Of a stretch of 64,000 bases of DNA, positions 46,017-46,725 are shown in pieces. The translations under genes were made by a program, and so were the position numbers. Every line of letters begins with the position of its first letter. Within the stretch, counting starts at the first letter, position 1. Under the pieces are notes generated by a model, which did not search any database, was not told where the DNA came from, and saw nothing but the letters and a program-made list of their open reading frames with translations. The stretch is from the NCBI RefSeq assembly GCF_988242995.1, contig NZ_OZ547043.1. One strand, written 5' to 3'.

Positions 46017-46725
46017 AAATGCGCCTGTAAGGCTCTGTTACCAGCCGCGCCCTAACAGGCGCATACGATCTGACATTTGCATTCAACTTCGTTACTTACG
46101 GCCCGTAAACGGGCTGCCCGGATATGGAATCGATAACTGCTCCCCCATTTTATCCTCTTCAAGCTGGTGCTTTATGTAGTCACGTATCTTCGCCGTGTTC
46201 TTACCCACCGTATCGACATAGTACCCTCGGCACCAGAACTCCCTGTTTCTGTATTTGAATTTCAAATCCCCAAACTGCTCGTAAAGCATCAGACTGCTTT
46301 TCCCTTTCAGATATCCCATAAAGCCGGATACGCTCATTTTGGGTGGGATTTCCACAAGCATATGGATATGATCTGCGCAGCACTCTGCTTCCAGAATCCG
46401 TACGCTTTTCCACTCACACAGCTTTCTCAAAATACTGCCTATCGCCCTACGCTTCTCTCCGTAAAACGCCAGTCTTCGGTATTTCGGCGCAAAAACTATG
46501 TGATATTTACAGTTCCAGCGGGTGTGCGCTAAGCTCTTTTCGTCCCCCATTGGGACCCCCTTTTGATTTCTTGTTTGACACTTGCAGTTGCCAGACCGCA
46601 AGGTGTTTTAACAAATCAAAAGGGGTTTTAATAACTGGCTCAAAGCTGAAAGCTTTCCGGAACCCCCAGCCTAGCTGGGGGTTTTCTGTGCACAATAAGA
46701 CGGCTCCTGATTCAGGAGCCGTTGA
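46017..46725 (-). mobile_element. IS200-type insertion sequence (IS200/IS605 family); boundaries approximate (about +/-20 bp)
   Basis: Single HuH transposase ORF, no terminal inverted repeats, perfect hairpins at 46661-46683 and 46701-46721 upstream of tnpA, structured 5' leader; about 709 bp fits between the ytfK terminator and the ytfL stop. Confidence 0.7.
46092..46550 (-). CDS. tnpA: IS200 transposase TnpA (Y1 HuH transposase)
   Basis: ORF 46092-46601; start at MGDEKSLAHTRWNCKYHIVFAPKYRR gives 152 aa; HuH motif HIHML and conserved Tyr region (CRGYYVDTVG). Confidence 0.92.
   Translation of the reverse strand: MGDEKSLAHTRWNCKYHIVFAPKYRRLAFYGEKRRAIGSILRKLCEWKSVRILEAECCADHIHMLVEIPPKMSVSGFMGYLKGKSSLMLYEQFGDLKFKYRNREFWCRGYYVDTVGKNTAKIRDYIKHQLEEDKMGEQLSIPYPGSPFTGRK

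Follow-up and report, generated by a model that had tools for sequence, protein, structure and literature searches.

IS200 is the founding element of the IS200/IS605 family, whose TnpA transposases recognize the top strand in single-stranded form by its subterminal hairpins and pick cleavage sites through short guides located 5' of the hairpin foot. Experiments on the regulation of IS200 have used E. coli as well as Salmonella (Ellis, Trussler & Haniford 2015, PMC4513863), and the left-end coordinates of that study are used throughout for mapping. That paper describes the left-end hairpin, an inverted repeat at nt 12 to 34, as a bidirectional terminator that stops ~85% of read-in transcripts, and cites Beuzon & Casadesus 1997 and Beuzon et al. 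1999 for earlier work on the left-end leader. Transcription of tnpA starts at about nt 40, and a second inverted repeat (nt 69 to 138) forms a stem-loop that buries the Shine-Dalgarno (SD) sequence, AAGGGGGU; mutations in its lower stem (positions −75 to −69) raised the toeprint signal 20-fold and tnpA-lacZ expression 50-fold (PMC4513863). An antisense RNA of ~90 nt, art200, has its 5' end at nt 153/154 and a promoter with a good −35 and an almost unrecognizable −10 element; by means of a kissing loop, it pairs with mRNA positions −23 to −62 and keeps the 30S subunit from binding (PMC4513863). The same study places a C/A-rich tract at −26 to −21 and reports ~5-fold repression by Hfq, which binds a short way upstream of the SD and has no need for art200.

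Two other groups of elements are close to this system. IS10, with its RNA-IN/RNA-OUT pair, resembles IS200 in that a cis-encoded antisense RNA blocks 30S binding on the transposase mRNA; it differs in having an unrelated DDE transposase and in pairing that starts at the mRNA 5' end with the aid of Hfq, whereas pairing in IS200 starts loop to loop and Hfq acts independently (PMC4513863). IS608 and ISDra2 share with IS200 a Y1 HUH transposase, subterminal hairpins at both ends, and the absence of inverted terminal repeats; all insert 3' of a specific short target sequence and leave it unduplicated. In contrast to them, IS200 has no tnpB, and where they use TTAC or TTGAT its target appears to be a T-run that follows a hairpin. 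The regulatory leader belongs to the IS200 group only.

The 64-kb stretch of DNA analyzed here (the window) contains, in the E. coli spacer between ytfK and paeA (ytfL), what is very probably an intact IS200 lying just 3' of the terminator shared by these two genes, with a 144-nt leader that corresponds to the known multilayer brake on transposase synthesis. The element and its immediate surroundings comprise the following features.

45983–46694, minus strand: complete IS200, 712 bp, delimited by the empty-site match and by the similarity limits of other E. coli copies
46092–46550, minus strand: tnpA, encoding an intact 152-aa Y1 (HUH) transposase (ATG at 46550–46548; stop codon ending at 46092)
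45992–46010, minus strand: right-end subterminal hairpin CCUCCGGC-UAU-GCCGGAGG, kept in all aligned copies
46700–46722: host hairpin outside IS200, with a 10-bp stem and a 3-nt loop, terminator-like on both strands in a terminator scan

The translated tnpA frame begins MGDEKSLAHTRWNCKYHIVF and matches Pfam PF01797 (Y1_Tnp, “Transposase IS200 like”) with 126.7 bits (E = 7e-37; profile positions 2 to 121 of 121), and the list of open reading frames holds no second frame of note inside the element. The element begins with TGTGCAC... and finishes with ...TATTTATT, which do not form an inverted repeat; each end instead carries a subterminal hairpin, the two being similar in sequence and on the same strand. 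A sole-ORF Y1 transposase, a length of ~700 bp, subterminal hairpins, and an insertion without duplication are the features of IS200 membership, and all are present. Other E. coli copies, annotated as IS200/IS605 family transposases, are 99.4 to 99.7% identical to this one (2 to 4 differences per 712 nt).

The limits of the element could be fixed closely. When the flanks (45880–45982 and 46695–46800) are joined, all 218/218 positions are identical to sequences in E. coli strains, and this empty ytfK-paeA site was found in 5,413 genomes when 5,426 complete E. coli genomes were searched; the joined flanks equal the empty site, so that the insertion entailed no target duplication. When IS200 copies from three further E. 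coli loci are aligned with the window, similarity starts at ...TTGTGCACAG and stops at ...GGAGGATATTTATT. Since the hairpin at 46700–46722 is contained in the empty site of 5,413 genomes, IS200 ends at 46694 and the hairpin is of host origin; an A next to both junctions leaves the boundaries ambiguous by ±1. The hairpin begins 5 nt beyond the element, lies 16 nt past the paeA stop codon (46738–46740) and, in the empty site, 23 nt past the ytfK stop codon, and its CTTAT tail is the IS200 insertion target. Its occurrence in genomes lacking the IS identifies it as a host structure, an intrinsic terminator that serves both paeA and ytfK, which are convergent.

The preliminary description of this locus had placed two perfect hairpins inside the element, upstream of the tnpA start codon. 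Both hairpins (46661–46683 and 46700–46722) exist, and their location upstream of tnpA on one strand, as well as megablast matches to other copies that seemed to reach 46708–46718, would agree with a leader holding tandem built-in terminators. However, the empty site in the 5,413 genomes contains all of 46695–46800, the outer hairpin included, other IS200 copies have different and unrelated hairpins at the equivalent position (the terminators of rnb, cutC, and others), and the seeming extension of the megablast matches consists of shared T-rich tails. A leader with both hairpins is therefore extremely improbable, and only the inner one is assigned to IS200. The longer element implied by the megablast reach to 46708–46718 was likewise ruled out by the empty-site test.

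The ytfK-paeA site is occupied in only 2 of the 5,426 complete E. coli genomes. In E. coli O158:H23 (NZ_CP076709.1), it holds an IS200 variant that has diverged at 31/712 positions (4.4%), as against 3/189 positions in the flanks. The differences between this variant and the window copy fall on 1/144 leader positions versus 26/459 coding positions. The contrast between element and flanks suggests either that the two copies inserted independently at a single hotspot or that gene conversion took place between IS copies.

With the conversion of IS nt N to window position 46695−N, all published IS200 left-end landmarks land on the expected sequence in the window. The leader and the antisense locus are made up as follows.

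46661–46683 (nt 12–34), minus strand: left-end perfect hairpin AACCCCCAGC-UAG-GCUGGGGGUU, with a 10-bp stem and a 3-nt loop
46642–46656 (nt 39–53), minus strand: small perfect hairpin AAAGCU-UUC-AGCUUU, located where tnpA transcription is published to start (~nt 40 = 46655)
46557–46626 (nt 69–138), minus strand: long imperfect stem-loop whose 3' arm carries the SD
46555–46562 (nt 133–140), minus strand: SD AAGGGGGU (DNA AAGGGGGT), identical to the published SD
46542–46556 (nt 139–153), minus strand: hairpin GUCCC-AAUGG-GGGAC with the AUG in its loop, predicted in the minimum-free-energy (MFE) and centroid structures
46541–46630, plus strand: predicted art200 (formerly STnc490), ~90 nt, placed by the published 5' ends and length
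46506–46535, plus strand: candidate art200 promoter, with −35 TTTACA (46506–46511), an 18-nt spacer, and −10 TAAGCT (46530–46535)

The segment nt 12 to 34 reads AACCCCCAGCTAGGCTGGGGGTT in the window, the lower stem at −75 to −69 is CCCCTTT (CCCCUUU in RNA; 46619–46625), and the C/A-rich tract at −26 to −21 is AAACAA. The tnpA ATG begins at nt 145 (46550), and nt 153 is the final base of codon 3; the published art200 start sites at nt 153/154 correspond to 46542/46541 on the plus strand, and the antisense RNA would cover exactly three codons. The extended imperfect inverted repeat of the preliminary description was located at 46557–46625, where a repeat search gave arms (46557–46572 and 46610–46625) with 94% complementarity. 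The perfect hairpin at 46642–46656 and the hairpin with the AUG in its loop are structures beyond those of the preliminary description.

A further match comes from Rfam. RF01405 (STnc490) aligns to 46560–46683 on the minus strand over its full length (model positions 1 to 124 of 124) with 146.4 bits against a gathering score of 56 (E = 4.9e-31), and all of its consensus helices, including the hairpin at 46642–46656, are present in the window leader. The model matches the tnpA-sense strand, although in the literature STnc490/art200 is antisense to the tnpA 5' untranslated region (5'UTR); the family seems to have been built in the 5'UTR (5'tnpA) orientation. Elsewhere in the window, the enterobacterial small RNA (sRNA) family STnc450 (RF02051) has a full-length match in the paeA-msrA spacer (48143–48200, minus strand; 77 bits, gathering score 37).

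The PF01797 assignment, the RF01405 match (146 bits), and the complete mapping of published landmarks bear out the earlier proposal that this tnpA leader has built-in IS200 silencing, although the leader is the standard self-silencing one and was already known from the work in Salmonella and E. coli. The Salmonella and E. coli elements are the same element, sharing the hairpin, stem-loop, SD, C/A-rich tract, AUG, art200 start, and loop sizes. The Salmonella IS200 is quoted at 707 bp versus 712 bp for the window copy, which is of the E. coli sequence type, and a Salmonella plasmid copy is 93% identical to the window over nt 1 to 173, with a few upper-stem changes and with CTATG in place of GCACA at nt 4 to 8. 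Judged from such comparisons, the departures from the published system are only minor sequence-type differences. IS1541 of Yersinia pestis and Y. pseudotuberculosis shares the helices and the SD in a leader that is 92.5% identical, and is also found behind terminator hairpins; its coding sequence is 84% identical to that of the window IS200, and it numbers ~70 copies in Y. pestis (among the matches listed).

The structures are far from what chance would give. Seven distinct perfect hairpins with stems of at least 10 bp occur in the 64-kb window, compared with 0.5 per 64 kb in mononucleotide shuffles, and two of them within 62 nt are thus not a chance occurrence. A 241-nt minus-strand RNA folds at −93 kcal/mol, whereas its dinucleotide shuffles fold at −63.9 ± 4.2 kcal/mol (z = −6.9; 0/200 as good). 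Folding of the minus-strand transcript had been named beforehand as the check on whether the inverted repeat pairs across the ribosome-binding site. When the transcript is begun at nt 40, CCCCUUUUGAUUU is paired with AAAUCAAAAGGGG in the MFE structure; the SD lies in the 3' arm, each of its bases is paired with a probability of at least 0.99 in the partition function, and the MFE and centroid structures agree. The outcome named beforehand as refuting, an SD unpaired in the MFE structure, was thus not obtained, in line with the preliminary description. The predicted terminal loops, 6 nt in tnpA and 4 nt in art200, have the published sizes (PMC4513863). SD pairing is also predicted in 24/24 intact leader variants from >15 enterobacterial genera (mean probability of 0.86 to 1.0, among the matches listed), as against 0.4 to 0.5 in two leader-only relics without tnpA.

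Observed directly in the window copy are the identity of landmark sequences, the predicted folds, the element boundaries, and the host origin of the outer hairpin; termination, translational repression, art200 expression, and Hfq binding we infer by analogy with the published, nearly identical elements. On this basis, silencing would proceed in layers, of which the published model has four that act independently. Transcription reading in from paeA would meet the host terminator at 46700–46722 and then the left-end hairpin at 46661–46683; as a consequence of insertion behind a host terminator, paeA read-through would face two terminators in tandem before tnpA. The terminator activity of the left-end hairpin would be that described in the literature, since a generic scan did not call this hairpin as a terminator, its sense-strand tail being UUCCGG with no U-tract. 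The weakly transcribed tnpA mRNA, starting near 46655, would fold into the nt 69 to 138 stem-loop, with the strong SD AAGGGGGU buried and the 30S subunit blocked.

From the plus strand, art200 would start at 46541/46542, end at the inverted repeat and its U-tail, and form a kissing loop with the upper stem of the tnpA mRNA that blocks ribosome binding. On that strand, the nt 69 to 138 repeat followed by TTTTAAT constitutes the predicted body and terminator of art200. In the predicted RNA, a 5' tail spanning the SD and the first three tnpA codons leads into the long hairpin and UUUUAAU (−38.4 kcal/mol), and this modeled fold looks like that of an Hfq-type sRNA terminated by an intrinsic terminator of its own. 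The candidate promoter, assigned from its sequence, agrees with the good −35 and poor −10 elements of the published one (PMC4513863); a generic promoter scan of the window did not call it, which is consistent with the poor −10.

Hfq would bind just upstream of the SD and repress ~5-fold independently of art200. The preliminary description had counted Hfq among the repressing factors, which agrees with the published work, but had made it a cofactor of the antisense RNA, and this does not hold, as Hfq represses tnpA independently of art200 (PMC4513863). It had also pointed out that hfq is encoded in the same window; the gene is indeed there (6556–6861, plus strand), but it is a core gene 40 kb away, and no significance attaches to its presence.

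At the other end of the element, the right-end hairpin (45992–46010) followed by TTTTT (to 46015, plus strand) is terminator-like in the scan. As the first terminator after ytfK, it would replace the shared one and stop ytfK transcription before it runs antisense into tnpA. A partial match to the Yersinia sRNA family Ysr202 in Rfam overlies this end (45954–46015; 29.8 bits, below the gathering score).

Leader conservation was assessed in 26 distinct leaders from >15 enterobacterial genera, taken from searches of plasmids and of E. coli and from representative genomes scanned with a DNA pattern (among the matches listed). Covariation measures for the leader helices in this set were no higher than in shuffles, and two pairs had double changes; the leader is too conserved for a covariation signal to appear. 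In the lower stem, 10/15 pairs are invariant across the 26 leaders, and 97% of cells are paired in the hairpin at 46642–46656 and 92% in the predicted AUG-loop hairpin at 46542–46556 (all among the matches listed). Comparative support for the helices is thus conservation and not compensatory change. The 5'UTR from nt 35 to 144 is 90 to 99% identical to the window across genera, whereas tnpA third codon positions in the same pairs differ by 18 to 40%, and this pattern indicates strong purifying selection on the noncoding leader.

Several copies appear to retain the leader without an intact transposase gene. Interrupted tnpA frames with 92 to 98% identical leaders occur in Edwardsiella, Erwinia, Superficieibacter, Brenneria, and Kluyvera, although some of the interruptions are possibly assembly errors. 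The art200 and 5'tnpA sRNAs also regulate host virulence genes in Salmonella. The interrupted copies with kept leaders fit, at the level of sequence, the proposal that leader-derived sRNAs may be retained for host functions.

Leader-only IS200-like relics (~75% identical) are found on E. coli IncI/IncF plasmids, with 281 plasmid records at 60 to 80% identity. They end just before the start codon, where an internal piece of a lambda Rz-like gene continues in frame; one of them adjoins iss. The SD-sequestering stem has decayed in these relics.

The window copy might itself be a dead relic whose leader structures have no current role, given that IS200 is notoriously immobile (PMC4513863) and that the tnpA frame is interrupted in several copies from other genera. 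Against this, the 152-aa ORF of the window copy is intact, both of its ends are present, and it is 99.4 to 99.7% identical to other E. coli copies, constraint on the leader is stronger than that on the coding sequence, and “active” and “inactive” IS200 copies have been reported to be almost identical in sequence (PMC4513863). We consider a dead relic very unlikely and retain the reading of an intact IS200 with its brake in place.

A further possibility concerns the hairpins as DNA. The left- and right-end hairpins are near-copies of each other with compensating changes (CCCCCAGCUAGGCUGGGGG versus CCUCCGGCUAUGCCGGAGG), and GAAAA precedes both. AGAAAA just 5' of the left-end hairpin is kept across variants while nt 4 to 8 vary, and the TTTWT left flank (94 sites among the matches listed) and the TTATT right end match the guide/cleavage-site logic of IS608. 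It is somewhat more probable than not, in our estimation, that the hairpins serve primarily as DNA signals for the transposase, with the terminator activity of the left-end hairpin as a secondary use. This account complements the silencing leader rather than replacing it: it leaves the nt 69 to 138 stem-loop, SD sequestration, and art200 unexplained, and for all of these there are direct RNA-level experiments (PMC4513863). In the literature consulted, no paper was found that shows TnpA binding to the ends of IS200 itself; by analogy with the family, the left-end hairpin is probably also a TnpA-bound subterminal recognition element.

The position of the window copy behind a host terminator is not peculiar to this locus. 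We compared 94 distinct IS200/IS1541 insertion sites (among the matches listed, as are all counts of sites here) with random control windows from the same loci. A GC-rich hairpin shortly precedes the left end in 87/94 sites, at a distance of 0 to 7 nt in 83 of these 87. In 83/94 sites, as against 4.6% of control windows, the left end is immediately preceded by a hairpin whose tail is T-rich (4 or more T among the final 8 nt), and flank MFE separates insertion sites from controls with P = 3e-53. The flank consensus over the 94 sites is T-T-T-W-T at −5 to −1, and the IS200 right end finishes in TTATT. Orientation is fixed, tnpA being codirectional with the terminator T-run, and the window flank, with its 10-bp hairpin and CTTAT tail, is typical among these sites.

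From these flanks, we infer that T-runs behind hairpins would be a preferred target of IS200. In Yersinia pestis NCTC5923, some IS1541 copies lie head to tail in tandem, with the left end of one abutting the right end of another (hairpin plus ATATTTATT). Resemblance of the right end to the preferred target would lead one to expect such tandems. We see an even chance that IS200-group transposases select intrinsic terminators, that is, a GC hairpin and TTTWT tail mimicking the element's own right end (hairpin plus ATATTTATT), as landing pads in fixed orientation, in which case the host hairpin beside the leader would be no coincidence. Recognition of the target by TnpA and survivorship of harmless insertions are about equally probable as the source of the link to terminators. 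A 2025–26 preprint has in part reported the association with terminators for the family, and the landing pattern is not new in outline.

The leader of this IS200 has little value as a discovery: it represents textbook throttling of a transposase by transcription termination, sequestration of the SD in a stem-loop, antisense pairing, and Hfq. Its value lies in annotation, as the exact element ends are given, the outer hairpin is recognized as the paeA/ytfK terminator, and the loci of the art200 and 5'tnpA sRNAs are placed. If terminators are recognized as targets, new copies would be born shielded from read-in by a host terminator, a fifth and external layer of silencing, and this would explain the harmless persistence of a nearly immobile insertion sequence.
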